Assembly (NCBI RefSeq): GCF_046105845.1
Contig: NZ_CP151004.1
Direction: 5' to 3' (one strand)
DNA: 64,000 bases
DNA from: Escherichia coli
GTDB taxonomy: Bacteria > Pseudomonadota > Gammaproteobacteria > Enterobacterales > Enterobacteriaceae
The position numbers were made by a program, and so were the translations under genes. Shown here in pieces: positions 19,842-43,909 of the stretch. Numbering within the stretch: position 1 is the stretch's first letter; every line of letters begins with the position of its first letter. Below the pieces are notes generated by a model that saw nothing but the letters and a program-made list of their open reading frames with translations, was not told the DNA's origin and made no database searches.

Positions 19842-19850
19842 GTATTCTCC

Positions 19851-23790: not shown

Positions 23791-24885
23791 TTACCTGACA
23801 ATAACCGTAATGGTAGCTGATGCTTTAAAAGGTCCGGTCGACAATACTCCACCGACCAGATTTACAGGATAAGCCTGAAAGTGTGTTGTTCCTGCTCCGG
23901 TTTTATCTAGCAGAATGATGCCTGGATTAAATGGAACATCTACTTGCCCTTTAGTCACATCCATAAGGCGGATACCAACATCAGGGACATCATCACTTTC
24001 ACGGCGTCTTGCGACTAAATTATATTGATTAACATAATCTGAACCTTCAATTTTCATATACAAGCTATTGTTAATTTGGGACATATCACCGCAATCATAG
24101 GTAATATCAAAGCTTACTGGAGTGTAACCTGTTGGCATCTGATTTTGTAGGGTGAAACGTTGAGCGCTAATAAATCCAAGATTTACATTAATGGTATCAC
24201 CTTGATTTATTTTGCAACTTTGAGGTACCGTAATTCGGCCTTGAATATAGATTTTAGCAATATCCTTAATGGGACGTGGTGCAGCAGAAGTACTTGTCCA
24301 CGCAGCCTGGACTGAAGCAATATGTGTTTCAGGGATATTCAGTTCACCCAAAAATGGCGTAGTGACGTATAGTGTAATCGTTGTATTTTTACCAATAGAA
24401 AAGTCTGATCCCCGAACATTGGCTGGGTCGGCCATGCACACACTATTGTTTTTGTTAGCATGGTAAGTACCAGTACCGTCTCTAAGCGGTGTATATGAAT
24501 TGCTTGGAACCATAACAGATGGATTACCAGGAATGTCGTTTATTTGGGTTTTAATATCCAGATTAGAATTCAGTCGATAGAAATCTCGTTCTTTACCTTG
24601 AGTTATTAATGCAGATGTTACTGTATAATACAGGTTAACTTTACTACCTGCCGGACAAGAGCAGTTTAAGGTGTAATTGCTCCCAATAGCTGAATTCTTT
24701 ACCACATAATCTTTGCCGGCAACATTATTATCTTGTGTCCAGTCCTCAGAAGCATCTGTCCGAAATTCACCTGTTCCTTCACAATCACCTGTTGCTGCCT
24801 TTACCGATGGGCTAAGTAACAGGGGGGAGACCACGGCAGCAATAGACAATAGTTGTTTAATCATTTTGAAACTCCCTAAAGACAC
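23791..24885 (-). CDS. yraK: Fimbrial adhesin-like protein YraK (chaperone-usher fimbriae)
   Basis: 364-aa ORF with signal peptide; last gene of the yraHIJK operon. Confidence 0.9.
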   Translation of the reverse strand: MSLGSFKMIKQLLSIAAVVSPLLLSPSVKAATGDCEGTGEFRTDASEDWTQDNNVAGKDYVVKNSAIGSNYTLNCSCPAGSKVNLYYTVTSALITQGKERDFYRLNSNLDIKTQINDIPGNPSVMVPSNSYTPLRDGTGTYHANKNNSVCMADPANVRGSDFSIGKNTTITLYVTTPFLGELNIPETHIASVQAAWTSTSAAPRPIKDIAKIYIQGRITVPQSCKINQGDTINVNLGFISAQRFTLQNQMPTGYTPVSFDITYDCGDMSQINNSLYMKIEGSDYVNQYNLVARRRESDDVPDVGIRLMDVTKGQVDVPFNPGIILLDKTGAGTTHFQAYPVNLVGGVLSTGPFKASATITVIVR

Positions 24886-27398
24886 TTTGCCGAATCACGA
24901 ATAATGGGGGTAGTGATGTTCGCGCTATCGTTCAGACTAAACGTAAACTGGCATTGTTGGTTTATTCCACTTCCCCAGCGAACCTTCCAGGTTTGTGGTT
25001 TTTTATTAATGCCGGAGAGATAAATAACTCCAGCTTCATCGACAATACTTTGTTGGAATTGGCCTTCATTACTGGCAACAGCACCAAAAGGAATGGGCTT
25101 ACCTTGGACGTCAGTTAGTGCTAATAGCACTCTGTGACCGGTTTGGGCATTAAAATTTGCAACGACAGCGGCGCCCTGTCCTGGCACGACAATCTTTGCA
25201 GTCTCCTGGACATCTACATTATCCGGCATTGTAGTAGTGTCTAAGGCAATACGATTTTCCTGATAAGCCGTTAAATAAGGGATGACGGCGTAACCAAAGT
25301 AATCGGTGGCAATACCAGGGTAATTTTTAACCCGAATATTAGATGCACCCTGGGTATCAATTACGGCAAATGTATTACCCAGCGGTTGTGAGAGAGTCAC
25401 CCCATGGGGGTGTGCGACAATTCCACCTGAAAGACCATAGCTGAACTGGCGACTGTTTGACGTGTAATCATAGTTGGCGTTAACAGTGCCATAAGCAGAG
25501 CGGTAACTACCAGAAAGCGTACTGCCGTTATTATTATTTTCCTGGTCCATTCGTTGTTTAAAGCTGTAACTTAATCGGTTGTCATCAAGGAAAGAACCGG
25601 TAATGCCAGTCTCATATTGAGTTGAACGGTATTTTTCATCAGTGACACGAAACGTAGCTTGTGCATTAGGTAACCAACGATCCAGAGGCAGACTAATACT
25701 AAAAAAGATTGCCCTATCACTATCGCGATCGGAATAATCTGTGAATTGTCCACTCACGCTGTAGCTGATGCCGGCAAGATAGCCGTTCAGTCCGGCAGAA
25801 TAATTGCGATCATTTTGTTCTGCTCCCCAGTATTCTCGTTGTGCACCTGAAATATAAAAACTGAGATTATCAGTCAGCGTTTGGTTAACGTTGAAAATCG
25901 CTTCGCTGCGTTGGCGATTGTTTACATTAATATCACGTTGGTTTGCGTCGGCAAAGGTAAAAAAAACTGAGTTGGAATAGCGCGAGTAACTAAGAGAAAG
26001 GCTTGTTCCTGTTTCGGGTATATCTTTAATATATTGAAAACGTAAACCTTCCCCGGTAAATTTTTCTTTATTTTCTAACTTCGTTTTGGCATAAGTTAAA
26101 TCAACGGAAAGTGCGCCCAAAATACTCAATGTGCTACCGATGCCTAATGCTGCTGCTTGATAATCCTTGGATCCAGTTACCCCACCATAAAGAGTGAAAA
26201 TATTAGTAAGGCCGTAAAATGCTGTGCCTTCGATGAACTCTGGTTCTTTACTATTAGATGACGGGTCTGCACGAAATCGCCCTGCTGTCATGCTATATAA
26301 AAGATGGCCTGGCCGTTGCATAACAGGAAGTGCTGAAAACGGCTGAGTAAATTGGCGAACGGTACCATCGGCTTCTTCAATTGTAACGTCTAAATCACCG
26401 CTAAATGAGGATGGATAGAGATCGTTGATTTCGAATGCTCCCGCCGGGACATTGCTTTGATAAATTGTATAGCCATTCTGGCGGATGGTGACTATTGCGC
26501 TGGTATTGGCAATCCCACGGATAATCGGTGCAAAACCTCGTAAGCTATTCGGTAACATGTTCTCGTCAGAATAAATTCTGGCACCCGTAAACTGAACGCT
26601 GGAAAAAATTGTGCCATCAGTGGCGCTTTCACCAAGCACTAATTGCGACTTTAAACTCTTAATATCACGCTGCAACCAACTATTAATACTATCCCAGCGA
26701 GTCTCATTACTGCTATGTGTCCACGTGGAGTAATTACGCAACCGCCATGGGCCGATATTGACTCCATTTTGCATATTGAGATAAAACCTTTCATTCTTTT
26801 CGCTGTTACTATAATAACTGTTCGAGCCACTAAAACTGTAATTGGTAAACAATACTGGAATACCATGATCCCACCTGGCGGGATCAACATAACCAGAAGG
26901 GTCACGCCGCAGGGCAATTTGTGGAATGTCCAGGATGAGAGTGCTATGGTTGAGGTCTATCTTTGTTTTGCTTCCAGGTACGGTTTTGGATAAATCTGTT
27001 ATCAGGGCGTTGTCATCAAGAGTATTTAGTGAATTTATTTCGTCAACTTTAAAACCCAATTCGCGTAAAAGACCAACGGTAAGCTGTGGGCGAATTTCTC
27101 CATTATCATCTATAGCAAAAGTGATTTTTCTCTGAGTCACCTTTTTTTTATTGATAACGATCTCAACATCATAATCACCGGGACTATGAGTATTTTTACC
27201 GGAGAAAGCAGATAAATCGCTTGCCTTTTGACCACTCTTTGTTGTTTCCAGCAATGAGGGATCAAAATAGTAATTGTCAGCAATGGCATGAAGAGGGGAC
27301 AGAACTCCACCAGTAATAAGAACAGGTAATACTGTTTTTAACCAGCAGGAAAGTGGTTTCATAACAGGTAAAGAGATGCATTTTATTTTGGTTTTCAT
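24876..27398 (-). CDS. yraJ: Fimbrial outer-membrane usher YraJ
   Basis: 840-aa usher-family protein. Confidence 0.93.
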   Translation of the reverse strand: MKTKIKCISLPVMKPLSCWLKTVLPVLITGGVLSPLHAIADNYYFDPSLLETTKSGQKASDLSAFSGKNTHSPGDYDVEIVINKKKVTQRKITFAIDDNGEIRPQLTVGLLRELGFKVDEINSLNTLDDNALITDLSKTVPGSKTKIDLNHSTLILDIPQIALRRDPSGYVDPARWDHGIPVLFTNYSFSGSNSYYSNSEKNERFYLNMQNGVNIGPWRLRNYSTWTHSSNETRWDSINSWLQRDIKSLKSQLVLGESATDGTIFSSVQFTGARIYSDENMLPNSLRGFAPIIRGIANTSAIVTIRQNGYTIYQSNVPAGAFEINDLYPSSFSGDLDVTIEEADGTVRQFTQPFSALPVMQRPGHLLYSMTAGRFRADPSSNSKEPEFIEGTAFYGLTNIFTLYGGVTGSKDYQAAALGIGSTLSILGALSVDLTYAKTKLENKEKFTGEGLRFQYIKDIPETGTSLSLSYSRYSNSVFFTFADANQRDINVNNRQRSEAIFNVNQTLTDNLSFYISGAQREYWGAEQNDRNYSAGLNGYLAGISYSVSGQFTDYSDRDSDRAIFFSISLPLDRWLPNAQATFRVTDEKYRSTQYETGITGSFLDDNRLSYSFKQRMDQENNNNGSTLSGSYRSAYGTVNANYDYTSNSRQFSYGLSGGIVAHPHGVTLSQPLGNTFAVIDTQGASNIRVKNYPGIATDYFGYAVIPYLTAYQENRIALDTTTMPDNVDVQETAKIVVPGQGAAVVANFNAQTGHRVLLALTDVQGKPIPFGAVASNEGQFQQSIVDEAGVIYLSGINKKPQTWKVRWGSGINQQCQFTFSLNDSANITTPIIRDSAKCL

Positions 27399-27450
27399 TA
27401 TTCCCTTATTTCCTTATTCCCTGTCATATGTATAAGTTTTGTATAAATAA

Positions 27451-28143
27451 TTATGGCAAAGTAGATGTATATGTATCCGTATTACCGCCATAGTCATTAA
27501 TGGCTGCCCATTTCACGATGTTTTCTGAAACTAATGGCAATGGTAATTGCTTATGTTCACCCGGTGCAATAAATTCTATTTTATCGGTAAAGTCGGTTTT
27601 TCCTACAGCCAGTCCTGAAAAAACAACGTAATATGCCGAAGGATTATATATCTCCAGTTGGTTGTTCTTCCTTGAGAATTTTAGGCCTTTATAGGCATCT
27701 GAAGGTCTACCGTCCATTTCTGATGGTCTGTAAAAGAGTTTAATGCGTGTTTTAAATACTAAAGTAAGTAGGTTCTTATCTTGCGTTTCTTTTTTATCGA
27801 CAGCAGGAATTGCACGGACGTTAATATAAAAAAGTGATTCTTTATCTCTCGGTAGATTGCCATCGGTTTTAATGATACGCAATGAAGAGTTGTCTCCGGC
27901 ATCAAGACGAAATAGCGGAGGGGTAATAATAAAAGGGCCGCGAGAAGAGTCATAGATATTTTCAACCCACGATTGTAATAAATATGGTGGTTTATCACTT
28001 CGATTAGTGACCGGCAATGCAGCTTCTTTTTTACTACCATCATAAACTACACGCGTTCTTTCCAGAAGGATTCCACCAGCCAGACTCTGGTTCACCCAGC
28101 CAGCTAATAGAAAAAGTATTGCAAACGATTTTTTAATCTTCAT
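27451..28143 (-). CDS. yraI: Periplasmic fimbrial chaperone YraI (PapD-like)
   Basis: 230-aa ORF with signal peptide. Confidence 0.92.
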
Positions 28144-28232
28144 CTTCTGTTACCGCTACGAAATAAAATTGTCTCTTTAACAGCAGACCGCTAAAGAGAC
28201 AAAATAAAGGATTATGAACTAATGACTAGTTA

Positions 28233-28805
28233 TCAACGATAATCAAGAGTTACATCCACAGTAGCATTAGCTTCACCGGGTTTGATTTTATCGGCTGTTG
28301 TGGTTGACACATAGTAAGCCGCTAAATCTAAATTCATCGTGGAACCAGTAATTGGGAAAGATATCTTTGGAACACTAAGTTTGTTAATTGCCATAGGTGT
28401 TTGAGCATCTTTTTCAATCCGAATACCAACACCTGTAGCCGCGGTATCTGGGTCCATACTTGTAACAGCAACTAACTCATTGTTATCACCGGTAGTTGCT
28501 CCGTTACGCGTTTCCAGCCATAACTGGAAAGACGCATCTTTAGTACCATCAATGTGATCCCAGGCTACCGTTGGGCAGTTTTTCAACGGAATAGTGAAAG
28601 GGATCGTAGGGGATTTATCCCCTTTAAACTTAAACTGATTAGCGGCATAGTGACCTAATTCAACATAAACTGTATCACCATTCGCAAATTCACAGACAGT
28701 GCCAAGAATTTCACCCGTGAATTCAATTTTTCCATCGGTTGCGGAGGCGCTACCGGCAAAAAGCGCCAGCAGGCCAGCGGCAACTGTCTTAGCTACTTTA
28801 CTCAT
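28233..28805 (-). CDS. yraH: Major fimbrial subunit YraH
   Basis: 190-aa fimbrial subunit with signal peptide; preceded by about 1 kb of AT-rich DNA. Confidence 0.9.
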   Translation of the reverse strand: MSKVAKTVAAGLLALFAGSASATDGKIEFTGEILGTVCEFANGDTVYVELGHYAANQFKFKGDKSPTIPFTIPLKNCPTVAWDHIDGTKDASFQLWLETRNGATTGDNNELVAVTSMDPDTAATGVGIRIEKDAQTPMAINKLSVPKISFPITGSTMNLDLAAYYVSTTTADKIKPGEANATVDVTLDYR

Positions 28806-29454: not shown

Positions 29455-29482
29455 AAAAAAGGCAGATAATTAATTATCTGCC
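29455..29482 (-). terminator. Perfect-palindrome hairpin with flanking A/T runs (probable terminator for minus-strand transcripts)
   Basis: aaaaaa-ggcagataatt/aattatctgcc. Confidence 0.45.
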
Positions 29483-29852: not shown

Positions 29853-30617
29853 TTATGCTTTGCTTCTCTCTATTAAACAAATAAAGTTACTGTGCAGCCA
29901 TAAAAACGAAGCCGGGATAGCGGTGGAGACTTTAGCCGTGAGAAAACGTTCTGTCGCATCCTGCTTTCCTTCGCCAGTCACCAGTAACAAAACTTCGCGG
30001 GCACTGAGAATATCCTTCAGGCCTAAGGTGATCCCACGAATCACGGGACGGCCCGCGGTTTTTAACATCTCATGTTGCTGTGTTCTGGCATCAAGTTGAC
30101 TGATATGGCAGGCCGGTTGCAGGCTTTCTCCCGGTTCGTTCAGCCCAAGATGACCGTTTTTCCCCAACCCGAGAACGCATAAATCCAGACCGCCTTTGCG
30201 CGCAATCAGGTTCGTTACCCGTTCGCACTCTGTCTCATTTATCTCTTCGGAGCGAAAGCTGATGAGCTGGTCTTCACGCAGCCCCAGCGGCTGCACGATA
30301 TGCTGTTGTAGGAAAGTTTCGCAGGTGCCAGGCATCGTTAATGGCAGATCCACCCATTCGTCGAGCTTCACGAAGGTGAGCTGGCTGACATCAACCTGCT
30401 GCTGGTGGATTTTTTCTACCAGATAATGATACGTCAGTAATGGCGTGGCTCCGGTCGCCAGGCAAATCACGGCATCCGGTTTGCTACGGATCACGGCCAA
30501 TAAATATTCGCTGGCACGTTCACTTAACGCCGTATAGTTTTCAACTTGTTGAAGGGTTTGCACAGGATGAAATTCCTTAAGTAAAGAGGCACCGCCAGAC
30601 GCGGTGCCTCGTTCCAT
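29853..30617 (-). CDS. agaI: Galactosamine-6-phosphate deaminase/isomerase AgaI
   Basis: 254-aa ORF of the NagB/AgaI family; last gene of agaS-kbaY-agaBCDI. Confidence 0.92.
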   Translation of the reverse strand: MERGTASGGASLLKEFHPVQTLQQVENYTALSERASEYLLAVIRSKPDAVICLATGATPLLTYHYLVEKIHQQQVDVSQLTFVKLDEWVDLPLTMPGTCETFLQQHIVQPLGLREDQLISFRSEEINETECERVTNLIARKGGLDLCVLGLGKNGHLGLNEPGESLQPACHISQLDARTQQHEMLKTAGRPVIRGITLGLKDILSAREVLLLVTGEGKQDATERFLTAKVSTAIPASFLWLHSNFICLIERSKA

Positions 30618-31409
30618 TTACAAAATGCCGAATGCGGAACAAACAATAGAGAGCACAAAAGTCACGCCGATTAACAGCACCGGATGCGCTTTTTTCACCC
30701 GCAGGAAGTAATACATCAGCAGGGTGTAGGCCATCGGTAAAATGTTCGGGAAGACTTTATCGAAGAAATCCTGTTGCAGCGCGACGCTGTGGGTACTGTC
30801 GATGGCAAACGATGTCACCACGTTAATATGCACATACGAAGCGATCAGCCCGCCGATTACCGTGATCCCGAGGATGGTTGCCGAACGAGCAATCATCTGC
30901 GAGTTCTCTCGCACTTTATCGATCGCCTTCACGCCGACTGAATAACCGACGTGGGTCCAGCCGACGCGCAGGAAGAAGATAAGCAGGTAAACGGCGAAAA
31001 ATAGAATCGGCCCCAGCAAGTTTCCCTGGCTGGCAAATGATGAGCAAATTCCCGCCATAATCGGCAATAAGGTAAACCAGAAAATCGCATCGCCAATCCC
31101 GGCGATTGGGCCAAACAGTGCCACTTTGAGGCCTTTAATGGTGTCGCGGTTTTCTCCTTTTTCTTCCATCGAAATTAATAACCCCATCAGGAATCCGACC
31201 AGATTCGGGTGGGTATTAATAAATTCGAGGTTATCTTTCATCGCCGCGCTTAGGCCCGGTTTGTCGTCCTTATAAATCTTTTTCAGGATCGGCAACATCG
31301 CCCAGGTAAAACCGCCCGCCTGCATCCTTTCGTAGTTAAAGCTTGCTTGTAGCAGTGACGAACGAAAGCCCAGACGGGTGATATCTTTTTTACTGATTTC
31401 AGATCCCAT
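30618..31409 (-). CDS. agaD: PTS galactosamine-specific EIID component AgaD
   Basis: 263-aa product from MGSEISKKDITRLGFRSSLL; the 317-aa ORF in the track over-extends into agaC. Confidence 0.93.
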   Translation of the reverse strand: MGSEISKKDITRLGFRSSLLQASFNYERMQAGGFTWAMLPILKKIYKDDKPGLSAAMKDNLEFINTHPNLVGFLMGLLISMEEKGENRDTIKGLKVALFGPIAGIGDAIFWFTLLPIMAGICSSFASQGNLLGPILFFAVYLLIFFLRVGWTHVGYSVGVKAIDKVRENSQMIARSATILGITVIGGLIASYVHINVVTSFAIDSTHSVALQQDFFDKVFPNILPMAYTLLMYYFLRVKKAHPVLLIGVTFVLSIVCSAFGIL

Positions 31410-32202
31410 TGCTGTAGTCCTCTTCTTCATTTTTACTGGCAACGGGCTGCGGTTGCGCTTGCTGCCGGGATTTCGCATTGAAAAACTCATACACCGCAAA
31501 GCCTGCGCCCAGTACGGCAACCGGCAACAGGTTGCTGACCTGGATGTAGCAAACAAACAGGAAGCCGGCAATCAGGTAAGGGATATATTGCGCTTTGAAC
31601 ATCACGCGCAGCAGCAAGCCAAAACCAACGGCAGGCAGAATACCGCCAGCCACTTCAAAGCCGTGGGTCAGCCAGGCGGGCATCGCTTTCACCAGCGCCT
31701 GCATCGCCCCTTGTGCCAGGTAAGTACAGAGGAAAGCAATCACCGCATACGCTGAAGCAACGATGAGCATCGTTGTCCAGTTAAGTCGGGAAAACGCTGC
31801 CGTATCCGCTTCTTTCGCGCATTTATCGGCTTTGGTCATAAATAATGAGAAAGCAGAATAGAAGAACAGAATGACATACTGCATTAACAAACTAAACGGC
31901 AGGCCAAGACCAATTGCTGTTTTGGCATCAACGCCCGTAGACCATGCAATGACGGTGGTCATCAGACCCGCCATAATCGGGTTGGGCGGCTGAACACCAC
32001 CTGCAGGGGTTAATCCGGCGAAAGCCAACTCTGTCAGACCACCGGTAATTAAGCCAGTCTGAATATCACCGAGAATAGCGCCAGTTAGGGTACAAACGAT
32101 TATCGGGCGGAATAAAAATAAGGCTTCCAGCCAAAAATCAATCCCCAGAACGAAAACTAACGCCGCCAGGGATAATCCCTGAAGTAGGGTTATTTCATGC
32201 AT
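31399..32202 (-). CDS. agaC: PTS galactosamine-specific EIIC component AgaC
   Basis: 267-aa membrane protein. Confidence 0.93.
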   Translation of the reverse strand: MHEITLLQGLSLAALVFVLGIDFWLEALFLFRPIIVCTLTGAILGDIQTGLITGGLTELAFAGLTPAGGVQPPNPIMAGLMTTVIAWSTGVDAKTAIGLGLPFSLLMQYVILFFYSAFSLFMTKADKCAKEADTAAFSRLNWTTMLIVASAYAVIAFLCTYLAQGAMQALVKAMPAWLTHGFEVAGGILPAVGFGLLLRVMFKAQYIPYLIAGFLFVCYIQVSNLLPVAVLGAGFAVYEFFNAKSRQQAQPQPVASKNEEEDYSNGI

Positions 32203-32240
32203 TTTTATTACCTCAAACCAATATTAAGGCGATTTTAGAT

Positions 32241-32717
32241 TTAGTCAGGGATTTGTTCTTTTTGATCGCCAGGGACGTCCTGAATGAAAACATTCACGCC
32301 ACGTTGTTTAATAAAACGTAAGTCCGTGAGATCCTGGTCATCGACATAAACTTTACTGCTGATTTGCTTTTTCCCTTCCGAGAAATGCATATTGCCGACG
32401 TTGACATCTTTCAGGTCAATACCACCTTCTACCAATTTACGTACCGTTTGTGGCGTACGGCAAATCAGGAAGATCTTTTGATGCGGTGCAGCTTTGCCGA
32501 TGACGTTAATGGTTTTTTCGATAGTAAAGAAACGAATGCCAAAGCCGTAGGTTTCCGCGGTAATACCCATTAATTTCTGTTGAATATCATCGTTAGCGAC
32601 AACATCATCCACGACTACCAGCAGATTTGCACCGATGGTGGATGTCCAGGTCACGCCAACCTGACCGTGAACCAGACGGTTATCAATACGGGTTAAGAGA
32701 ATATTTGGACTGCTCAT
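32241..32717 (-). CDS. agaB: PTS galactosamine-specific EIIB component AgaB
   Basis: 158-aa ORF MSSPNILLTRIDNRLVHGQVGVTW (phospho-His region). Confidence 0.94.
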   Translation of the reverse strand: MSSPNILLTRIDNRLVHGQVGVTWTSTIGANLLVVVDDVVANDDIQQKLMGITAETYGFGIRFFTIEKTINVIGKAAPHQKIFLICRTPQTVRKLVEGGIDLKDVNVGNMHFSEGKKQISSKVYVDDQDLTDLRFIKQRGVNVFIQDVPGDQKEQIPD

Positions 32718-32883
32718 TGTGTAATCCTCACCATAAAGTTGAATAATATAATTTTTTTAAATATATTATTATTGCGATATTTTACTGATGTATTTATTAA
32801 GGTTTAGTTATCTCCTTTACCATTAAGGCACTCCCCGATATTAATCGGGAAGTACATTGGGATAAATCATAAAAAAATAATGA

Positions 32884-33756
<873 letters not shown>

Positions 33757-34911
33757 TTATGCCTGCCACGGATGAATGATTACGCCTTGCACCACGCGGT
33801 TAACGGTGCCACTGGCTGATGGGGTATCCGGCGTATTGCCCATGTGCAGCGACTGCATCAGTGCAAACGTCTGGGCGTACATCAGGAAGCAAAATGCCTG
33901 CTCAACGTCGATAAAGTGACGTGACGGCGGCAGGATAATATGTGGACCGGCAGCAACGATGTCTGTGCTTTCCGCGGCGATGGCGATTACGCGCATTGCC
34001 TGGTTGTCACGACGAAGTTCAGCCAGCAGATCAAGATCATACTGACGGGTGTAAGGGTGGCTGGAGACAAATACCACCACCAGCGTTTCGTTATCGACCA
34101 GCGATTTCGGGCCATGACGGAATCCGGTCGGGGAATCATAAAAGGCCGCCAGTTTACCCGCCGTCAGTTCCAGTACTTTCAGCGCCGACTCGCGTGCTGC
34201 GCCCTGTAAGCCACCGCTGCCGAGATAAACGATCCGTTTCCACGGTGCGTAACCAAACACACCTTCGCTGAAATCGCCCAGTGAGGTCAGGATCGCCTGG
34301 CAACGATCCGCCACGTCGCGGAAGCTCTGGCTATTGATCGTCTCAGGTGCGAAAACCGCGAGGCAGCTGGCCATCATGGTGGTAATGCTGCTGGTCATCG
34401 CAAAGCCGCGATCGTGCGTTTCTGCGGGCATCAGCAGGGCAAACGCGTTATCGCTGTTGATCGCGTTTTGGTAAAGAGCGCCCGCTTCGTTGCAAGTGAT
34501 CGGCAGGTGATAGCATTCTGGTACAAATTGATTTGCCAGTTCCACGGCAGCGACGCTTTCTGGGCTGTTGCCGGATCGACCGAAGGAGATCAACAGCAGC
34601 GGATGAGCTGGATTCAGGTAGTCCATCGGATTAGTGACCAGATCGGTGGTCGGTACGGCGCTGAAGTTTTTACCGGTATGGCTGGCGAGCCACGGCGCGA
34701 TGATGTCACCGATAAATGCCGAGGTTCCGGCTCCGGTCAGGATTACCCGCAGATTCTCTTTGCGCAGTAACGGTTCAAGGAAGTTATTGAGCGCGGAACG
34801 TAGCGCGTCGATGTTGGTGAGTGAACGGATCCATGCGCGAGGCTGATGGCGGATCTCTTCTTCAGTCCATGTACCGGTTGCGGCAGCAGCAGGGGTGTAA
34901 TTTTCTGGCAT
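33757..34911 (-). CDS. agaS: SIS-domain sugar-phosphate isomerase/deaminase AgaS
   Basis: 384-aa ORF with two SIS domains. Confidence 0.94.
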   Translation of the reverse strand: MPENYTPAAAATGTWTEEEIRHQPRAWIRSLTNIDALRSALNNFLEPLLRKENLRVILTGAGTSAFIGDIIAPWLASHTGKNFSAVPTTDLVTNPMDYLNPAHPLLLISFGRSGNSPESVAAVELANQFVPECYHLPITCNEAGALYQNAINSDNAFALLMPAETHDRGFAMTSSITTMMASCLAVFAPETINSQSFRDVADRCQAILTSLGDFSEGVFGYAPWKRIVYLGSGGLQGAARESALKVLELTAGKLAAFYDSPTGFRHGPKSLVDNETLVVVFVSSHPYTRQYDLDLLAELRRDNQAMRVIAIAAESTDIVAAGPHIILPPSRHFIDVEQAFCFLMYAQTFALMQSLHMGNTPDTPSASGTVNRVVQGVIIHPWQA

Positions 34912-35130
34912 AACTCAATCCTTAGTCTGATGAACTTGACGTCGGGCGTTGTCGCTTTCGCTTACCTTTCGTTTCATTTCACTTGGTGATGTCTTTCGTT
35001 GATTAAAATCTATAGAAAAGAAACTGAAAGTTCAATGGAGAAAAAAGAAATAAAACGAAATTTGTGATCGTTGAAAGAAAAGACAAGGGAAGATTAAAGG
35101 ATTGCGTGATAACGTCGCTATGTTCACCGA
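34912..35130. promoter_or_regulatory. agaS promoter region with repeated CTTTC/GAAAG AgaR-operator-like motifs
   Basis: cgctttcgcttacctttcgtttcatttcac, tctttcgttg, aaagaaactgaaagttc, aaaacgaaatttg, gttgaaagaaaag. Confidence 0.6.
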
Positions 35131-35132
35131 TT

Positions 35133-35186
35133 GCCGGATGCGGCGTACCGTAGGTCGAAGAAGACGCGTCAGCGTCGCATCCGACA
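35133..35186. repeat. Pair of REP-like palindromes in the agaS-agaA spacer
   Basis: gccggatgcggcgtaccgtaggtcg and gacgcgtcagcgtcgcatccgaca resemble REP units. Confidence 0.6.
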
Positions 35187-35211
35187 CCCTGCACAGAGCA
35201 CAACGAAAGAA

Positions 35212-35246
35212 AAAGAAAGGCCTTACGGGGGAAGTGAAGGCCCAAT
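35212..35246 (-). terminator. Candidate intrinsic terminator downstream of agaA (end of the kbaZ-agaVWEFA operon)
   Basis: Minus strand: ggcctt-cacttcccccgt-aaggcc followed by tttcttttt. Confidence 0.4.
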
Positions 35247-35260
35247 AAAGGAGCAAACCA

Positions 35261-36394
35261 TCAAAACGAAGCTAATTGACCCTGAATCCAGATTTGTTGC
35301 ACATGCAGCCCGCTATCCAGCGCAACGACGCTGGCGCGTTTGCCCGGTTTAAGCGATCCCAGAACATCATCAACACCCAGCATACGCGCCGGATGCAGCG
35401 ACGCCATATGGATGGCTTCCGCAGGCGTTACGTCCGTCAACTCGACCATGTTGCGCACTGCCGCATCGACAGACAGCGTACTGCCCGCCAGCCCACCGGA
35501 CGCGGTACGGACAACGCCACCGTGCATCTGCACTTCTTCACCACATAACGTATAGCGACCATCCGGCATCCCTGCTGCCTGCATCGCGTCGGTGATGAGC
35601 ACGATTCTCTCTTTCGCACAGCAACAACACAGCGACATCGCCGCCGGATGCACATGATTACCATCGGCTATCAGTTCCAGCCAGGCGCGCTTGTCCGTTA
35701 ATCCCGCGCCAACCATTCCCGGTTCGCGGTGATGTAAACCTGTCATCCCGTTATAGCAATGCACCAAGCCGTCGGCACCAGCGTCAAACGCGGCACGGGT
35801 TTGTTGCCAGGTCGCCGCGCTATGCCCCAGCATCACCCGTACGTTTTGCTGTTTAAGATGGCGGATGGCCTGCAATGCCCCTTCTTTTTCCGGTGCCAGC
35901 GCTACCACGCGCAAGGTGTGCTGAGAAACGGCAATCAACTGATCCAGCTCGGCAATTTCCAGCTCGCGAAACAGCTCCGGCGGATGCGCGCCTTTATTCT
36001 GCGGCGTGAAGTATGGTCCTTCGAGATAACTCCCCAGCACTTGCGCACCAGGTCCGCCGCGTTGGCAACGTTGAGCAATACGTTTCAGCGCCGCATGAAT
36101 GGTATTAAGCGGAGCGGTTACGGTGGTCGGTAACCAACTGCCGACACCTTCGCGTGCTTTGTGCATTGCCAGCTTGTCGAGCACATCCGGCGCGTCATCC
36201 ATTACATCAACGCCCGCACCACCGTGTACATGGGTGTCGATGTAAGCGGGGCAGAGCAGTTCCGCATCGCGTTCAGTCACGCCCACTGGAATCGGTTCGA
36301 TTGCTGCGATGACACCGTCAGCAATACGCAACTGATGGTCATCGAGCCATCCCTCTTCAGTCAGCAGCCTTCTGGCGCGCAGAACGTGTGTCAT
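35261..36394 (-). CDS. agaA: N-acetylgalactosamine-6-phosphate deacetylase AgaA, full length
   Basis: 377-aa product from MTHVLRARRLL; start ATG overlaps the agaF stop (ATGA); metal-binding HxH motif (DTHVHGG) present; intact, unlike the truncated K-12 allele. Confidence 0.92.
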   Translation of the reverse strand: MTHVLRARRLLTEEGWLDDHQLRIADGVIAAIEPIPVGVTERDAELLCPAYIDTHVHGGAGVDVMDDAPDVLDKLAMHKAREGVGSWLPTTVTAPLNTIHAALKRIAQRCQRGGPGAQVLGSYLEGPYFTPQNKGAHPPELFRELEIAELDQLIAVSQHTLRVVALAPEKEGALQAIRHLKQQNVRVMLGHSAATWQQTRAAFDAGADGLVHCYNGMTGLHHREPGMVGAGLTDKRAWLELIADGNHVHPAAMSLCCCCAKERIVLITDAMQAAGMPDGRYTLCGEEVQMHGGVVRTASGGLAGSTLSVDAAVRNMVELTDVTPAEAIHMASLHPARMLGVDDVLGSLKPGKRASVVALDSGLHVQQIWIQGQLASF

Positions 36395-36825
36395 ATTCCT
36401 TCCTCGACCGGACATTCTTCATGGCAGCGGCCTAACTCGTCCACCAAACTGGTCAGCCCACGGTGTCCACACTCCAGCGCCTGCACACGGAACTCTTCAC
36501 CGCTTAACCCTTCGCGCTCCAGCACCATCTCCAGTAGCAGTTGCAAATTGGTGCCGGTGATCACTTCACAGCCCGGTTTTTGTATCGCCAGCGTTGAAGC
36601 TACGCGAAACGGCGTGCCGCCCAGCAAATCCGTCAGAAAAACAATGCCGTCTTCACAATCCAGTTGGGCGAAGGCCTCTTCAAGCTGCGATGTAAGCAGC
36701 GCGGTGCTTGAGGTTTCCGGAAAATCGATGGCGATAAACTGCGATTGCTCGCCGAGGATTTGCTTCATTGCTTTTTCCATGCCGCTGGCAAATCCGCCAT
36801 GCCCTGTCAAAATAATACTTAACAT
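36391..36825 (-). CDS. agaF: PTS N-acetylgalactosamine-specific EIIA component AgaF
   Basis: 144-aa ORF MLSIILTGHGGFASGM...; absent from K-12. Confidence 0.93.
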   Translation of the reverse strand: MLSIILTGHGGFASGMEKAMKQILGEQSQFIAIDFPETSSTALLTSQLEEAFAQLDCEDGIVFLTDLLGGTPFRVASTLAIQKPGCEVITGTNLQLLLEMVLEREGLSGEEFRVQALECGHRGLTSLVDELGRCHEECPVEEGI

Positions 36826-36842
36826 CTAATACCTCATTGTAT

Positions 36843-37727
36843 TTAAAGGAAATGACAGAATTTACCGACGATGCCGAGAACCACGGTCACTGCAATCAGG
36901 CGCAGCGGACTCCAGCCGCGGCGTACCAGCCAGAACATGGTCAGGGTGTAGACCAGCGGTAAGAAGGCAGGCATCAGTTTGTCGATAACATCAGCCTGTA
37001 ACTTAACCACTGCGTCGCCCGCTGTGATTTCCAGCGTGGTGCTTAAACGAACATAGGTTGCCACCAGCGCGCCGATTACCGTCATCCCAACGATAGACGC
37101 AGCATGGCCGACTTTTTTGGTATTCGCTTTAATGAGTGGAATCGCCGCCACGCCCATGCGGTAAGCATAATGCGCCAGACCAAAACGCAGCCCCAGGTGT
37201 ACCACGTTGAACAGCACAATAAAGACGACTGCGCCAAGAATGGAGCCTTGCAATGCCAGACTGGCTCCAATCCCGCCACAAATCGGCAGTAGCGTTAGCC
37301 AGAACATTGCATCGCCAATCCCGCCAAGCGGCGCACCGACGGCAATTTTGGTGCTCTGAATACTGTTAACGTCCTGCTTAGAACGCTCCATCGCAAGGAT
37401 AATGCCGATAACAAACGTCACCAGAAACGGATGGGTATTGAAGAAACCCATATGCCCCTTCATGGCGCGCGCCAGGTCGCGTTTATTAGTGTGGATCTTT
37501 TTCAGAGCAGGCAGCAGACCGTACAACCAGCCAGAAGCCTGCATACGTTCGTAGTTAAAAGACGCTTGTAACAGCATGGAACGCCAGGCGACGCGGTTGA
37601 TATCTTTTTTCGTCAGCTCCGCGCCAATGCTCTGATCTTCATACACGTTTTCATTGACGCCAGTCAGCAATGTTTCTTCGTTTTCACTGACGTTCGGCAG
37701 GGTGGTTTGATTAGATGCCATCTTCAA
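36843..37727 (-). CDS. agaE: PTS N-acetylgalactosamine-specific EIID component AgaE
   Basis: 294-aa ORF paralogous to AgaD; absent from K-12. Confidence 0.92.
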   Translation of the reverse strand: MKMASNQTTLPNVSENEETLLTGVNENVYEDQSIGAELTKKDINRVAWRSMLLQASFNYERMQASGWLYGLLPALKKIHTNKRDLARAMKGHMGFFNTHPFLVTFVIGIILAMERSKQDVNSIQSTKIAVGAPLGGIGDAMFWLTLLPICGGIGASLALQGSILGAVVFIVLFNVVHLGLRFGLAHYAYRMGVAAIPLIKANTKKVGHAASIVGMTVIGALVATYVRLSTTLEITAGDAVVKLQADVIDKLMPAFLPLVYTLTMFWLVRRGWSPLRLIAVTVVLGIVGKFCHFL

Positions 37728-38490
37728 ATTCCTCTTTCTGTGCCGCAGGTTGAGTCGGTTCAGGAGATTTACGCAGCAGATCGATCAGCGCCATCGCCAG
37801 CGCGGCGGCAGCAATAGCCAGCACCGGTAACTTGAGCCAGGCGGCGGCAACAAAGCCCAGGATGAAGTAGGGGATGTAGACGTTTTTCATCATGATTTTC
37901 AGCAGCACGGCAAAACCGATTGCTGGCATGATGCCGCCCGCGACGCCGAGGCCGTCGATTAATCGTTGCGGCAGGACATCAATGATGGTTTTGGCATGTT
38001 CTGCGCCGAAGTAGATAGGCAGGAAAGCGCAGAGAAAATAGAAAGTGCCGAGTGCCAGCAATGCCAGATAGTTCACGCGTTCAATGCCGCGTGTATCGGC
38101 GTTCTCCGCCATCCGGTCGCAGCGAGACATCACGCCAGACATCACCGAGAACAGGAAGGTAATCCCCATCTGTACTGCAACAGCGAAAGGTACGGCGACA
38201 CCGACCGCGACATCGGGTTTCACGCCAGTAGTAATGGCAAACGCCGTGCCGACGATAGTACCGATAATCACGTTAGGCGGTTGTGCGCCTGCCAGCGGGG
38301 CCAGCCCCATCCACACCAGTTCCAGCGTACCGCCGGTTAAAATACCGGTATGCAGATCGCCAAGTACCAGCCCGACCAACGGGCCGAGGACCACCGGGCG
38401 GTGCATATGGGTTAGGCCGTTAAACATATCCAGGCCAGCGATAAAGGCGATAATGCCCAACGCGAATGCCTGCAACAGACTGATTTCCAT
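37711..38490 (-). CDS. agaW: PTS N-acetylgalactosamine-specific EIIC component AgaW, full length
   Basis: 259-aa ORF paralogous to AgaC; intact here, truncated in K-12. Confidence 0.92.
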   Translation of the reverse strand: MEISLLQAFALGIIAFIAGLDMFNGLTHMHRPVVLGPLVGLVLGDLHTGILTGGTLELVWMGLAPLAGAQPPNVIIGTIVGTAFAITTGVKPDVAVGVAVPFAVAVQMGITFLFSVMSGVMSRCDRMAENADTRGIERVNYLALLALGTFYFLCAFLPIYFGAEHAKTIIDVLPQRLIDGLGVAGGIMPAIGFAVLLKIMMKNVYIPYFILGFVAAAWLKLPVLAIAAAALAMALIDLLRKSPEPTQPAAQKEEFEDGI

Positions 38491-38500
38491 GATGAATCCC

Positions 38501-38974
38501 TCAAAGTAATTTAAAGAGGTCCACAGCAGGCTCTGTCGGGACGCCCTGAACGAAGCATTCCACCCCAGCGGCTTTCAGGTCGTTAAATGCTGCGATATCG
38601 CCCGCATCTACAGAAACCGTTTTGGCGATTTGTTGCTTGCCATTGGCGTAGTGCATATTGCCAACGTTAATGCGATTCACCGGAACGCCACCTTTCACCA
38701 GCGTCAGGAAATCGGCAGGTGTTTTACAAACCAGCAGGATTTTCTGTCGATCGGCGGCGCGATGAATGTTGTCGATGACTTTTTGCAGCGTCCAGAAACG
38801 TACGGCGATCCCTTCTGCCAGTACCATTTCCATCAGGTTTTGTTGTACCGGATCTTCGGCAACCTCATCGTTGGCTACCAGCACCAGATTTGCCCCCGCA
38901 AATCCGACCCACTGAACGCCGACCTGACCGTGAATCAAGCGTTCATCAATCCGGCTTAAAACAATATTTGGCAT
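38501..38974 (-). CDS. agaV: PTS N-acetylgalactosamine-specific EIIB component AgaV
   Basis: 157-aa product from MPNIVLSRIDERLIHGQVGV; the track's ORF has 12 extra N-terminal codons overlapping kbaZ. Confidence 0.93.
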   Translation of the reverse strand: MPNIVLSRIDERLIHGQVGVQWVGFAGANLVLVANDEVAEDPVQQNLMEMVLAEGIAVRFWTLQKVIDNIHRAADRQKILLVCKTPADFLTLVKGGVPVNRINVGNMHYANGKQQIAKTVSVDAGDIAAFNDLKAAGVECFVQGVPTEPAVDLFKLL

Positions 38975-38996
38975 AGCGTGTTCCTCTTTGTTTTGC

Positions 38997-40277
38997 TTAT
39001 TGGCCTTCACAGGCTGTGTGGTACTGCGCCAGGATGTCCTGAATATGGTTGATAATGAGTTCCCGTGGCGTTGGCTGCAGCTCGCCGGAGCGAACTTTCA
39101 CGTATTGCAGCGGCAGATACTGGCTGATGAGCGGTAGCGGAATTGGTGAATCCGCCAGATTACGAACCAGATGAGCGAAAGCGTCATCAATCTGGCTGTC
39201 CGGCCAGTAATAGCGCACGCGATCCGAGTAGCTATAACCACGCGCCAGGCGACGTGCGTTGCCGTCACCGTGGTAGTGGCTTTGCCAGTATTCCGGGCGG
39301 TCGAGCATCACGTTTTCCAGCACCTGACGCAGACCAGAACAGGCTTTTGCTGGTACCAGTTCTTCTTCAATCGCCGCCAGAGAGAACAGAGCTTCACGCA
39401 GGGCGAAGGTCAGCGCCGGGCCAACTTTCAGAATGGCAAAGTGGTCAATCACCAGCTGGCGCAGCGATTGCGGCGTTTGATAATCGGTAGAGTGCGCTTC
39501 GAAAATCAGCGTTTCGTAGTTTTCGACCATCTGGCTTAAGGCGGTCGCTTTAGCTGGCTGATAATCAATAACGTTGGTGTGATCGAATTCGACGCCGGGT
39601 TGTACCACCAGAGCAATGATGCGTGGCCAGATGGCACTCAGACCCTGCTTTTCAAAGGCGTGACGATGGGCTTCCAGCGTGGCGCGGGCGGCATCCGGCG
39701 TGGTGACCGCCAGCTCGCTTAAGGTTTCATGCGCGCCGCCAGGTACCGGTACTTCGGTACCAATGACATACTCCAGATCGGCTTCGCCAAAGTGTTCAAG
39801 ACAGGTTTCTTCCGCCACTTTCGCCAGACGGGCGGCGCGTTCAGCCACGATGTCATCAGTTAAGGGAATTGGATCGTCCTGACAGGACATACTGCAATCA
39901 AGGTGAATTTTTTTGAATCCTGCCGCCACGTAGCTTTTAATCAAATCATCGGCATTGGCCATTGCCTGAGCGGCTGGCAGGTTTTGCCAGCGGTTTGGCC
40001 CCAGATGGTCGCCTCCCAAAATCAACGCATCCTGTGGGAAATTCAACGAGTCGGCGAGCTGACAAACAAAGCCGCGAAAATCGGCGGGCGTCATTCCGGT
40101 ATAACCGCCGAACTGGTCCACCTGATTGGAGGTTGCTTCAATCAGTAACGGCGTTTGGTTTGCACTGGCGTAGCGGATTGCAGCTTCCAGCACCAGCGGA
40201 TGTGCGGAACAAACGGCATAAATCCCATTTGTTTTACCCTCTTTGTGCTGTCTCACCATTTCTGTCAGATGTTTCAC
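38997..40277 (-). CDS. kbaZ: Tagatose-bisphosphate aldolase non-catalytic subunit KbaZ (AgaZ)
   Basis: 426-aa [36 protein letters not shown]... Confidence 0.94.
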
Positions 40278-40525
40278 TTTCCTCTCCAGTTCAGATTACT
40301 GCGATATTAATCTTTCGTTTTGTTTCAGTTGATACTGCGCCATGGTGAGATAAAAATAAAACGAAAGATAATAGTTTTCTGATCTGATTCACAAAAGAAA
40401 CATAATGAAAGCCACTGAAACGAGAGTAGCTTGCGCCAATGGGTAAGGTGGGCTTGCATTTGCTTAATAGAAAGGCGTTAATAGGCAAAACGAAATGAAA
40501 CGAAAGTTTTACGAAAGGACTTACT
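40278..40525. promoter_or_regulatory. Divergent kbaZ/agaR promoter region with multiple AACGAAAG/GAAAC AgaR-operator-like repeats
   Basis: atctttcgttttgtttcag, aaacgaaagata, aagaaacataatgaaagcc, gaaacgagag, aaacgaaatgaaacgaaagttttacgaaagg. Confidence 0.65.
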
Positions 40526-41335
40526 ATGAGTAATACCGACGCTTCAGGTGAGAAGCGAATGACAGGCACCAGCGAGCGACGAGAACAGATCATTCAGCGT
40601 CTGCGACAGCAAGGGAGTGTGCAGGTTAACGATCTGTCGGCATTGTATGGCGTATCTACTGTGACGATCCGCAACGATCTGGCGTTTCTGGAAAAGCAGG
40701 GGATCGCTGTGCGTGCCTATGGCGGCGCGTTGATCTGCGATAGCACGACGCCGTCAGTCGAGCCATCAGTGGAAGATAAAAGCGCGCTGAACACCGCAAT
40801 GAAACGCAGCGTTGCGAAAGCTGCCGTTGAGTTGATTCAGCCAGGTCATCGGGTGATTCTCGATTCCGGGACCACCACTTTTGAGATTGCTCGTCTGATG
40901 CGCAAGCACACTGACGTAATTGCGATGACCAACGGTATGAACGTGGCTAATGCGTTGCTGGAAGCTGAAGGCGTTGAGCTGCTGATGACCGGGGGGCATT
41001 TGCGCCGTCAGTCGCAATCTTTTTACGGCGATCAGGCTGAGCAATCGCTGCAAAATTACCACTTCGATATGCTGTTTCTTGGTGTAGATGCGATCGATCT
41101 GGAGCGCGGCGTCAGTACGCATAATGAAGATGAAGCCCGTTTAAACCGCCGGATGTGCGAAGTTGCGGAACGGATCATCGTGGTCACCGATTCCAGTAAA
41201 TTCAATCGTTCCAGTTTACATAAGATCATTGATACTCAACGTATCGACATGATCATTGTTGATGAAGGCATTCCTGCGGATAGCCTGGAAGGGCTGCGAA
41301 AGGCTGGGGTTGAAGTGATTCTGGTCGGGGAGTGA
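40526..41335 (+). CDS. agaR: DeoR-family transcriptional repressor AgaR
   Basis: 269-aa ORF with N-terminal HTH ([23 protein letters not shown]) and DeoR C-terminal domain. Confidence 0.95.
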
Positions 41336-41389
41336 GAAAGTGTGCCCGCTGGTCAACACGAATGCGTTCGGCGGGCATTGTGAACACCA

Positions 41390-41854
41390 TCAATGGGGTT
41401 CTTCTGTCTCTCGGGTGAGGGTTTCCCAGTCGGCAGGAGGATGTCCTCTTTTTAACATTTTGCTGAATACGGTATAGGCATCTGTTTTTTTACCGTAGGT
41501 GCGCAGAGTGTTTTCATCGTTCATCCATCCCAGAATGATGACTTTCTCTTTTTCACTATAACGAAAGAAGAGACGATAACGACCAGCACCAAATTTTACC
41601 CGTGACCAGTCTTTATTTTTCCCAGAGCCTAACGACTTGCCATGACGGAATGCCGGTGATGATGGATTGACCGTGATATGCTCCTCAATCACTTTATGGA
41701 CTACCGCCAATAACTTTGTGGCGGCTTTTCTCTGATAATTTTCAGGATCTTTTCCCTTTAATGTCTCGACTTCGGCAACTAAAGCGTCGTAGGTTTCCTG
41801 AAAACAGGGATGAGCATATAGCGCCCAACCATTAACCCTTTGTGGAAAATCCAT
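41390..41854 (-). CDS. yhaV: Type II toxin YhaV (ribosome-dependent mRNA endoribonuclease, RelE/ParE superfamily)
   Basis: 154-aa ORF; gene order antitoxin then toxin; stop of prlF overlaps the yhaV start. Confidence 0.93.
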   Translation of the reverse strand: MDFPQRVNGWALYAHPCFQETYDALVAEVETLKGKDPENYQRKAATKLLAVVHKVIEEHITVNPSSPAFRHGKSLGSGKNKDWSRVKFGAGRYRLFFRYSEKEKVIILGWMNDENTLRTYGKKTDAYTVFSKMLKRGHPPADWETLTRETEEPH

Positions 41855-42189
41855 TATTCGTCGTCGCCAATCTCATCATCAATGTTGACGTCCATGCCAG
41901 CGACAAGTTTCTTTCCTTGTTGAATGTTGAATGGACGAGTTTTTTGCGGGTTGTTCTGGATATCTGCATCCAGAAAACGCAAAAATGCATTCATAGTATG
42001 ATCCTCCTGTTCATCTCCCAGTCGGCACATAAATACTTGCCCACCAGGCAGAATTTCGTAATGAATGCTGTCCTGGCCTGGCTTCAGTTTTAAGGCCTCA
42101 CGCACTGGCGCGGGGATAGTTGTTTGTCCGCGTATCGTGACCTTTGATTCAGTGGTCAGTACAGCGTGAGAGCGAGCATTAGCGGGCAT
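41854..42189 (-). CDS. prlF: Type II antitoxin PrlF/SohA (AbrB/SpoVT-type DNA-binding domain)
   Basis: 111-aa ORF MPANARSHAVLTTESKVTIRGQTTIPAPVREALKLKPGQD... with acidic C-terminus. Confidence 0.93.
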   Translation of the reverse strand: MPANARSHAVLTTESKVTIRGQTTIPAPVREALKLKPGQDSIHYEILPGGQVFMCRLGDEQEDHTMNAFLRFLDADIQNNPQKTRPFNIQQGKKLVAGMDVNIDDEIGDDE

Positions 42190-42245
42190 GATTCACTGTC
42201 CTTTTACAGCCTGTTTTCTGCTCAAATTATAAGCTTGAACTAAGG

Positions 42246-42270
42246 TAATGCAAATGCATTATTAATGTAC
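42246..42270. promoter_or_regulatory. Palindromic element upstream of prlF (candidate PrlF-YhaV autoregulatory operator)
   Basis: gtaatgcaaatgcattattaatgtac contains the self-complementary core aatgcatt, 57-81 nt upstream of the prlF ATG. Confidence 0.4.
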
Positions 42271-42283
42271 GTGGGGGCTTTAA

Positions 42284-42313
42284 ACAATAAAAACATGGCA
42301 CTAAGGCCATGTT
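42284..42313 (-). terminator. garD intrinsic terminator
   Basis: Minus strand: aacatggcc-ttagt-gccatgtt followed by tttttatt, 25 nt after the garD stop. Confidence 0.7.
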
Positions 42314-42337
42314 TTGCGAGGGACGTTCCAAAAGAAA

Positions 42338-43909
42338 TCAGGTCACCGGTGCCGGGTTAAACACCGCCAGCTGGTTATGCAGTCCCCATTGATCTGAGAA
42401 GGTTTTCTTCTTCCCGCTGGCGACGTCGAGAATAAAGTGGAACAACTTCCAGCCCACCTCTTCAATAGTTTCTTCGCCGGTAGCGATGGTGCCCGCATTA
42501 ATATCCATTAAATCAAACCAGCGGTTCGCCAGCTCGGTGCGGGTCGCCATTTTAATGACGGGTACCGCCATCAGGCCGTACGGCGTACCGCGACCGGTCG
42601 TAAACACTTGCACGGTAATCCCTGAAGCCACCTGTTGTGTGCCACAGACAAAATCACTGGCTGGCGTCGCGGCGTAAATTAATCCGCGTTTAGTCGGGCG
42701 TTGGCCGGGCGACAGCACTTCAACAATTGCACTTTTACCCGATTTAGCAATGGAGCCGAGCGCTTTCTCCACCACGTTTGCCAGACCGCCTTTCTTGTTG
42801 CCCGGCGAAGGGTTGGCGCTGCGGTCGGTTTTTCCCATATTGAGATAGTTATCGTACCACTCCATCTCCTCCAGCAGCCGTTTGCCGACCTCTTCGTTCA
42901 CTGCGCGTGGTGTCAGCAGATGGATCGCGTCACGCACTTCCGTGACTTCTGAAAACATCACCGTTGCGCCGCAGCGCACCAGTAGATCAGACGCATACCC
43001 AACCGCCGGGTTTGCCGTTACGCCAGAAAACGCATCGCTACCGCCGCACTGCATGCCGACAACCAGTTCTGAAGCCGGACAGGTTTCTCGCTGCCGTTGA
43101 TTCAGTTTGTGCAAATGGCGTTCGGCGACCTGCAAAATATCCTCGACCATGGACTGAAAACCGACATGCTTTTCATCCTGCAAACTGACAATGCTGGCGC
43201 TTTCTACTGGAATAGCTTGCACATCATCCGTTCCAGTCAGCAGGCGTTCAGGCTGCAACTTTTCACAACCCAGACCAATCACCATTACTTCGCCGCCAAA
43301 GTTAGGGTTCAGCGAAATATTGTGAATGGTACGAATAGGCACAACTGCCGCCGGTGCGTTAATCGCCACGCCACAACCGTACAAATGATTCAGCCCCACC
43401 ACGCCATCGACGTTCGGGTATTTCGGTAGCAGATCGCGTTCAATGATTTTTACTACATAGTCCACCACGCCTGCCACACAGTGGACGCTGGTGGTGATGC
43501 CGAGCAGGTTTTTGGTGCCCACGCTGCCATCGGCATTGCGATAGCCCTCAAAGGTGTATCCTTCCAGTGGCGGTAAGGGTGCCGGGACTTTGGTTGCCAG
43601 TGGCAGCGTGTGTAACGGTGGCGCTTCCGGTAGTACAACCATTGATTCGTCGATCCAGCTTCCGCGTGGGATTGCGCGCACGGCGTAACCAATCACTTCG
43701 CCATAACGAATAATTTCACCATTAGCCGGAATGTCCAGCAATGCGACTTTATGCCCCTGGGGAATATGTTCAATTAATTCCAGCCCATCCGGAAAACGCG
43801 TTCCTGCTTTCAGGCCATTATCATTAACAATAATTGCCACATTATCTGTGTCGTGAACTTTTATATAAAACGCAGTTGGCGTTTCTTGTCTGATTTCGAT
43901 GTTGGCCAT
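42338..43909 (-). CDS. garD: Galactarate dehydratase (L-threo-forming)
   Basis: 523-aa [30 protein letters not shown]... Confidence 0.95.

Follow-up and report, generated by a model that had tools for sequence, protein, structure and literature searches.

A complete, wild-type aga/gam regulon, the gene set for the use of N-acetylgalactosamine (Aga) and galactosamine (Gam), very probably lies in the 64,000-nucleotide (nt) stretch of Escherichia coli DNA analyzed here (the window; contig NZ_CP151004.1 of assembly GCF_046105845.1), where the cluster takes the 13-gene form known from E. coli C. The mechanical list of open reading frames (ORFs) and their translations, compared gene by gene with ATCC 8739 and with the soil isolate VCSW7, places all 13 genes in order and open (agaR; kbaZ-agaV-agaW-agaE-agaF-agaA; agaS-kbaY-agaB-agaC-agaD-agaI), and none of them contains an internal stop in this comparison. 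ATCC 8739, an Aga+ Gam+ strain and the one used to elucidate the pathway (PMC3668189), served as the E. coli C reference. Protein lengths equal those of ATCC 8739 and VCSW7 for every gene except agaI, and the gene order is syntenic with the annotated RefSeq loci of VCSW7, MG1655, and ATCC 8739. Each gene has an annotated counterpart that is identical or nearly so. Positions 35261-38490, the region on which the analysis centered, hold agaW, agaE, agaF, and agaA, with which the kbaZ-agaVWEFA operon ends. The members of the cluster are listed below, with protein lengths in amino acids (aa) and the components of the phosphotransferase system (PTS) given as enzymes II (EIIA to EIID).

40526..41335, plus strand: agaR, DeoR-type repressor of the aga regulon, 269 aa; intact; annotated agaR in the syntenic RefSeq loci
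38997..40277, minus strand: kbaZ (agaZ), tagatose-bisphosphate aldolase subunit, 426 aa, GTG start; first gene of the kbaZ-agaVWEFA operon; intact
38501..38974, minus strand: agaV, PTS EIIB for N-acetylgalactosamine, 157 aa
37711..38490, minus strand: agaW, PTS EIIC for N-acetylgalactosamine, 259 aa, ATG start
36843..37721, minus strand: agaE, PTS EIID for N-acetylgalactosamine, 292 aa from ATG
36391..36825, minus strand: agaF, PTS EIIA common to the Aga and Gam transporters, 144 aa, ATG start
35261..36394, minus strand: agaA, N-acetylgalactosamine-6-phosphate deacetylase, 377 aa; NagA-family amidohydrolase
33757..34911, minus strand: agaS, Gam-6-phosphate deaminase/isomerase, 384 aa; intact; function as proposed in PMC3668189
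32884..33744, minus strand: kbaY (agaY), tagatose-1,6-bisphosphate aldolase, 286 aa; intact
32241..32717, minus strand: agaB, EIIB for galactosamine, 158 aa; intact
31399..32202, minus strand: agaC, EIIC for galactosamine, 267 aa
30618..31409, minus strand: agaD, EIID for galactosamine, 263 aa
29853..30617, minus strand: agaI, annotated galactosamine-6-phosphate isomerase, 254 aa, variant C-terminus; intact

Four consecutive, uninterrupted minus-strand ORFs of the mechanical list fill positions 35261-38490. A first-pass annotation of this DNA had reported full-length agaW (259 aa), agaF (144 aa), and agaA (377 aa) between agaV and agaS; these frames are open, and re-translation and comparison revealed no frameshift or internal stop in agaW, agaE, agaF, or agaA. 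The same annotation gave agaE 294 aa, of which the intact gene stands while the length needs a two-codon correction, to 292 aa from the ATG. The longer figure derives from the mechanical ORF at 36843-37727, which opens on a TTG at 37727 only 2 nt after a GAGGA Shine-Dalgarno sequence, whereas the ATG at 37721 lies 8 nt downstream of it. The TTG start was rejected because the Shine-Dalgarno spacing, the ends of the NCBIfam model, and the RefSeq annotation, whose start is the ATG giving 292 aa, all favor the shorter protein. The 5' end of agaE overlaps the 3' end of agaW by 11 nt. Likewise, the mechanical agaA ORF (35261-36415; 384 aa) is 7 codons longer than the annotated gene and begins at an ATG at 36415, a start that was rejected in favor of 377 aa on the same three grounds. 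The preferred ATG at 36394 is preceded by GAGGAAGGA, and it overlaps the agaF stop, as had been described, in the form ATGA (ATG 36394-36392, stop 36393-36391).

The identity of the genes was assessed with NCBIfam models carrying curated cutoffs and with Pfam domains. AgaW, AgaE, and AgaF exceeded the cutoffs of their own equivalog models (410.8 bits against 300; 617.6 against 500, aligned over 1-292 of 292; and 216.6 against 130, aligned over 1-144 of 144, respectively), AgaV scored 319.9 bits with PRK11425 (cutoff, 180; aligned over 1-157 of 157), and AgaA scored 290.1 bits with TIGR00221 (cutoff, 225.65; aligned over residues 3-372). The IIA, IIB, IIC, and IID components of a mannose-family PTS are all present in AgaV, AgaW, AgaE, and AgaF above the specific Aga cutoffs, and the run of AgaW, AgaE, AgaF, and AgaA, all scoring above the equivalog cutoffs, is no chance pattern. 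The Pfam domains found were EII-Sor, EIID-AGA, EIIA-man, PTSIIB_sorb, and, in AgaA, Amidohydro_1, with the PTS domains at full length (AgaW covers EII-Sor over 1-233 of 233). Both histidine-bearing family motifs, the N-terminal T-H-G of IIA and the R-x-D-x-R-L-I-H-G of IIB, can be read in the translations, as LTGH9GG in AgaF (H9 in TGHG) and RIDERLIH15GQ in AgaV (H15 in LIHG); going by knowledge of the family, we take H9 and H15 to be the phosphorylation sites.

Residues 3-374 of AgaA align with solved NagA-family structures (PDB 7nut, 2vhl, and 1ymy; E values from 4e-59 to 1e-48), which raises the matter of its name. RefSeq labels the 377-aa gene nagA, the protein lies above the cutoff of the TIGR00221 nagA model, and agaA and nagA replace each other genetically (PMC3668189). 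That the gene is a second nagA, an N-acetylglucosamine-6-phosphate deacetylase as named by the Prokaryotic Genome Annotation Pipeline (PGAP), rather than an Aga-6-phosphate deacetylase is nevertheless most unlikely. The E. coli-type NagA model PRK11170 gives it only 225.1 bits against a cutoff of 483, so that the protein is not the NagA orthologue but a paralogue, AgaA, despite the PGAP name; moreover, the gene is translationally coupled to agaF within an Aga-inducible operon (PMC3668189). The question is one of naming and involves no different mechanism.

The first-pass annotation had also stated that K-12 lacks agaE and agaF and carries truncated agaW and agaA. A BLAST comparison of the MG1655 locus with the window, with the junction read base by base, bears this out and places the endpoints. 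MG1655 aligns in two blocks, at window positions 29872-35819 (97.7% identity) and 38115-44700 (98.1% identity), which share 10 overlapping K-12 bases; the flanking agaR, kbaZ, agaV, agaS, kbaY, agaBCD, and agaI are collinear. Between the blocks, K-12 is without 2,305 bp, and it follows the agaA side up to the motif GGTCGC and the agaW side from GGTCGC on, so that the microhomology allows the endpoints to shift by up to 6 bp.

35816..38120, unstranded: segment absent from K-12, 2,305 bp, located by BLAST and junction inspection
35810..35815, unstranded: GGTCGC, left copy of the junction microhomology, inside agaA
38115..38120, unstranded: GGTCGC, right copy of the junction microhomology, inside agaW

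In this way agaE and agaF have disappeared from K-12 entirely, agaW has lost its 3' half, and agaA has lost its 5' half; a truncated agaW of approximately the first 123 to 125 codons is fused to a truncated agaA of the final 184 codons. The RefSeq annotation agrees: it records two pseudogenes, one for IIC truncated at the C-terminus and one for the deacetylase truncated at the N-terminus, and neither agaE nor agaF. K-12 is Aga- Gam- (PMC3668189), a phenotype attributed to the 2.3-kb deletion where PMC3668189 and PMC9628945 cite Brinkkötter et al. 2000. The two regions are evidently not identical, and the flanks diverge by approximately 2% (248 mismatches over ∼12.5 kb); therefore, the source strain is not a K-12 derivative, as had been proposed.

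How common the intact state is was estimated from 5,426 complete RefSeq E. coli genomes. In 4,930 of these (∼91%), a single place contained at least 80% of window positions 35000-38700, and a 300-bp probe of the K-12 junction matched in full in another 371 (∼7%). Among the matches listed, every junction carrier is either a laboratory strain of the K-12 type or a genome of K-12 size (ER1709, JM83, the AML and DCM200 lines, MG1655 derivatives, and CY34). The intact cluster is the norm of the species and K-12 the exception; since the intact state is common, it says little about the source beyond "not K-12." As a separate observation, approximately 125 genomes (5,426 - 4,930 - 371) lack the complete agaWEFA segment but do not show the K-12 junction either, and other states of the aga cluster, presumably further lesions, therefore exist in E. 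coli.

These counts also bear on the polarity of the difference. An indel is formally symmetrical, and this symmetry is all that speaks for the K-12 arrangement being ancestral and the window carrying a 2.3-kb insertion. The K-12 junction cuts two ORFs whose full-length forms match the family models end to end, the 2.3-kb segment is without mobile-element features, the long form occurs in 91% of the complete genomes and across identity bands from 96% to 99%, the short form is found, among the matches listed, in K-12-sized laboratory genomes, and a 6-bp junction microhomology is typical of deletion. The insertion polarity has virtually no chance of being right and was rejected as refuted for practical purposes. 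On the reading that K-12 lost the segment, the microhomology would be the typical trace of a deletion by illegitimate recombination.

Regulatory sites were sought with the AgaR operator consensus, which is reportedly that of Ray & Larson 2004 and is said to read WRMMTTTCRTTTYRTTTYNYTTKK. It matches the window 5 times against 0.17 expected, and all of the matches fall in the two aga promoter regions.

40309..40509, unstranded: kbaZ-agaR divergent promoter region (Pz/Pr), with three AgaR-operator-like sites at 40309-40332, 40391-40414, and 40486-40509
34963..35064, unstranded: agaS promoter region (Ps), in the agaA-agaS spacer, with two AgaR-operator-like sites, at 34963-34986 (plus strand, 0 mismatches) and 35041-35064 (minus strand, 1 mismatch)

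The Ps and Pz/Pr promoters have been reported at the positions of these AgaR-like sites (PMC3668189).

The roles of the genes in the pathway were established genetically in E. coli C and O157:H7 (PMC3668189), and from that published work we infer the biochemical roles here. AgaV (IIB), AgaW (IIC), AgaE (IID), and AgaF (IIA) would form a mannose-family PTS permease importing N-acetylgalactosamine as Aga-6-phosphate, while galactosamine would be taken up by AgaBCD with the shared AgaF. AgaA would deacetylate Aga-6-phosphate to galactosamine-6-phosphate, which AgaS would deaminate and isomerize to tagatose-6-phosphate; a phosphofructokinase whose gene is not part of the cluster would then yield tagatose-1,6-bisphosphate, to be cleaved by the KbaY/KbaZ aldolase. 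AgaR would repress the operons from operators in Pz/Pr and Ps. In knockout experiments, agaS proved essential, whereas agaI and agaA could be dispensed with, the latter because nagA takes its place (PMC3668189). Thus, the phenotypically decisive loss in K-12 is that of agaW, agaE, and agaF and not that of agaA.

Growth of the source strain on both sugars (Aga+ Gam+) is a reasonable, well-founded prediction, given that the 13 genes are intact, the published null alleles are absent, the proteins hardly differ from their E. coli C counterparts, and the operators appear to be present. The published null alleles in question are AgaF G91S, the agaC Q8 amber, and the agaI Q72 amber, none of which occurs in the window, where agaF codon 91 is GGC (Gly) and agaC codon 8 and agaI codon 72 are both CAG. 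Several points weigh against so simple a picture. Aga+ Gam+ growth stays a prediction from the genes, and the functions required for it include some encoded outside the window (ptsH/ptsI and pfkA). The AgaR operators are putative, being assigned from a consensus that is strongly enriched at the expected places. The AgaF changes I52F and M81I, the five AgaA changes, and AgaE I224V may have effects of their own, although AgaW, AgaE, AgaF, and AgaA as found here also occur unchanged in another natural isolate, VCSW7.

It is accordingly conceivable that the genes are intact and the strain is still Aga- and/or Gam- through a missense or regulatory lesion: a single change, AgaF G91S, abolishes Aga use in spinach-outbreak O157:H7 (PMC3668189), and relative to E. 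coli C the window has I52F and M81I in AgaF and five substitutions in AgaA. We consider such a defect improbable, as the known null alleles are absent from the window, the operators and promoter regions are present, and agaA is dispensable anyway because nagA replaces it (PMC3668189). AgaW, AgaE, AgaF, and AgaA, in addition, match RefSeq proteins of the independent natural isolate VCSW7 residue for residue (100% identity; AgaW is WP_000406214.1), which suggests that these alleles are kept under selection.

N-Acetylgalactosamine and galactosamine are mucin-derived amino sugars, and their use is linked to gut colonization. With its complete cluster, the source is best described as an E. coli-like genome of wild type, distinct from K-12, and is predicted to have the usual capacity for both. 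The intact cluster and the K-12 deletion are already known and, in the parts of the literature covered here, on record since 2000 (Brinkkötter 2000; Hu 2013), and there is nothing new in the aga cluster as such. The present analysis adds the base-level endpoints with their 6-bp microhomology and the estimate of how frequent the two states are (∼91% intact, ∼7% with the junction).

Against the 5,426 complete genomes, the window reaches a best identity of 98.5 to 99.1% (98.8% for positions 1-20000, 98.9 to 99.1% for 20000-45000, and 99.0% for 45000-64000), and the best matches include isolates from soil, drain sediment, and wild birds. With a best identity of only ∼99.1%, the source appears to belong to a poorly sampled E. 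coli-like lineage. Next to agaI, between rsmI and agaI at the position of yraHIJK, the window carries a chaperone-usher fimbrial operon that is a rare, highly divergent allele.

23791..28805, minus strand: four-gene fimbrial operon, with ORFs 28233-28805, 27451-28143, 24876-27398 (usher), and 23791-24885

The Pfam domains Fimbrial, PapD, and Usher identify a major subunit, a PapD chaperone, an usher, and an adhesin-like subunit. The operon, in a divergent segment at 23777-29871, is only 65 to 69% identical in nucleotide sequence to yraHIJK of E. coli C. The usher was found at high identity (99.8%) in 1 of the 5,426 genomes, that of the ivory-gull isolate MEW, while approximately 4,590 match it at 60 to 80% only; VCSW7 is without a fimbrial operon at this position. 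From 29872 onward the window again aligns with E. coli C at high identity, a point 19 nt short of the agaI end, and AgaI has a variant C-terminus because the boundary of the fimbrial segment lies in these last 19 nt (29853-29872). AgaI ends in ...LIERSKA here (254 aa) and in ...LINT in K-12 and E. coli C (251 aa), and VCSW7 has a third ending (255 aa). We tentatively raise the possibility, in itself rather doubtful, that in this poorly sampled lineage the rare yra-type operon marks the agaI-end junction as a hot spot of fimbrial allele exchange, possibly with DNA from another Escherichia species.

The spacer between agaA and agaS contains, in addition to Ps, a palindrome resembling the repetitive extragenic palindromic (REP) elements.

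35125..35190, unstranded: REP-like GC-rich palindrome in the agaA-agaS spacer, just downstream of agaA, read from the sequence

A terminator-like stem lies within it (35187-35166), and 42 nt of the palindrome (35148-35189) recur at an unrelated site in another genome. In the segment analyzed, neither promoter-like consensus matches (3, against 4.7 in shuffled sequences) nor terminator-like ones (12, against 7.4 ± 2.3) were judged to be enriched, and the composition is unremarkable (51 to 58% GC). No Rfam family reached the gathering threshold between 29 and 45 kb. Elsewhere in the window, gathering-level matches were obtained for the RNase P RNA (rnpB; 48599-48975), the small RNA SraG (3504-3675), the S15 leader (3160-3274), and naRNA4 (1582-1652), all at the positions expected in E. 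coli. At the yhaC position (49203-50390, minus strand), a 395-aa ORF is intact, where a frameshifted yhaC pseudogene is annotated in ATCC 8739.

The closest known system is the aga/gam cluster of E. coli C, which is experimentally characterized according to the citations of Brinkkötter et al. 2000 in PMC3668189 and PMC9628945. It has the same 13 genes in identical order and orientation, and positions 35261-38490 align with it over 3,230 bp without gaps at 97.8% identity, a divergence of approximately 2%. In AgaV, AgaW, AgaC, and AgaD no residue differs from E. coli C; AgaE (I224V), AgaR, KbaY, and AgaB each differ by 1 residue (AgaR is also 1 residue away from K-12), AgaF by 2 (I52F and M81I), AgaA by 5 (H246N, G321D, G343D, I356V, and S372G), AgaS by 5, and KbaZ by 6. 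For AgaI the alignment shows 8 differing positions, made up of 5 substitutions and an insertion of 3 residues; five of the 8 lie at the C-terminus. The O157:H7 strains EDL933 and Sakai share the full agaWEFA segment at ∼97% identity but differ in carrying amber codons at codon 8 of agaC and codon 72 of agaI and are Gam-, and some O157:H7 outbreak isolates with AgaF G91S are Aga- (PMC3668189). With the permeases of the mannose family at large (ManXYZ, sorbose, and fructose/levan), the Aga system shares both an architecture of four components (IIA/IIB/IIC/IID) and the domains that Pfam assigns to them (EIIA-man, PTSIIB_sorb, EII-Sor, and EIID-AGA). Its proteins nevertheless score below the curated cutoffs of the ManYZ/sorbose subfamily models (e.g., 206.5 against 339.85 bits for TIGR00822), and its IIA is a separate 144-aa protein, AgaF, serving two permeases, whereas in ManX the IIA is fused to IIB.

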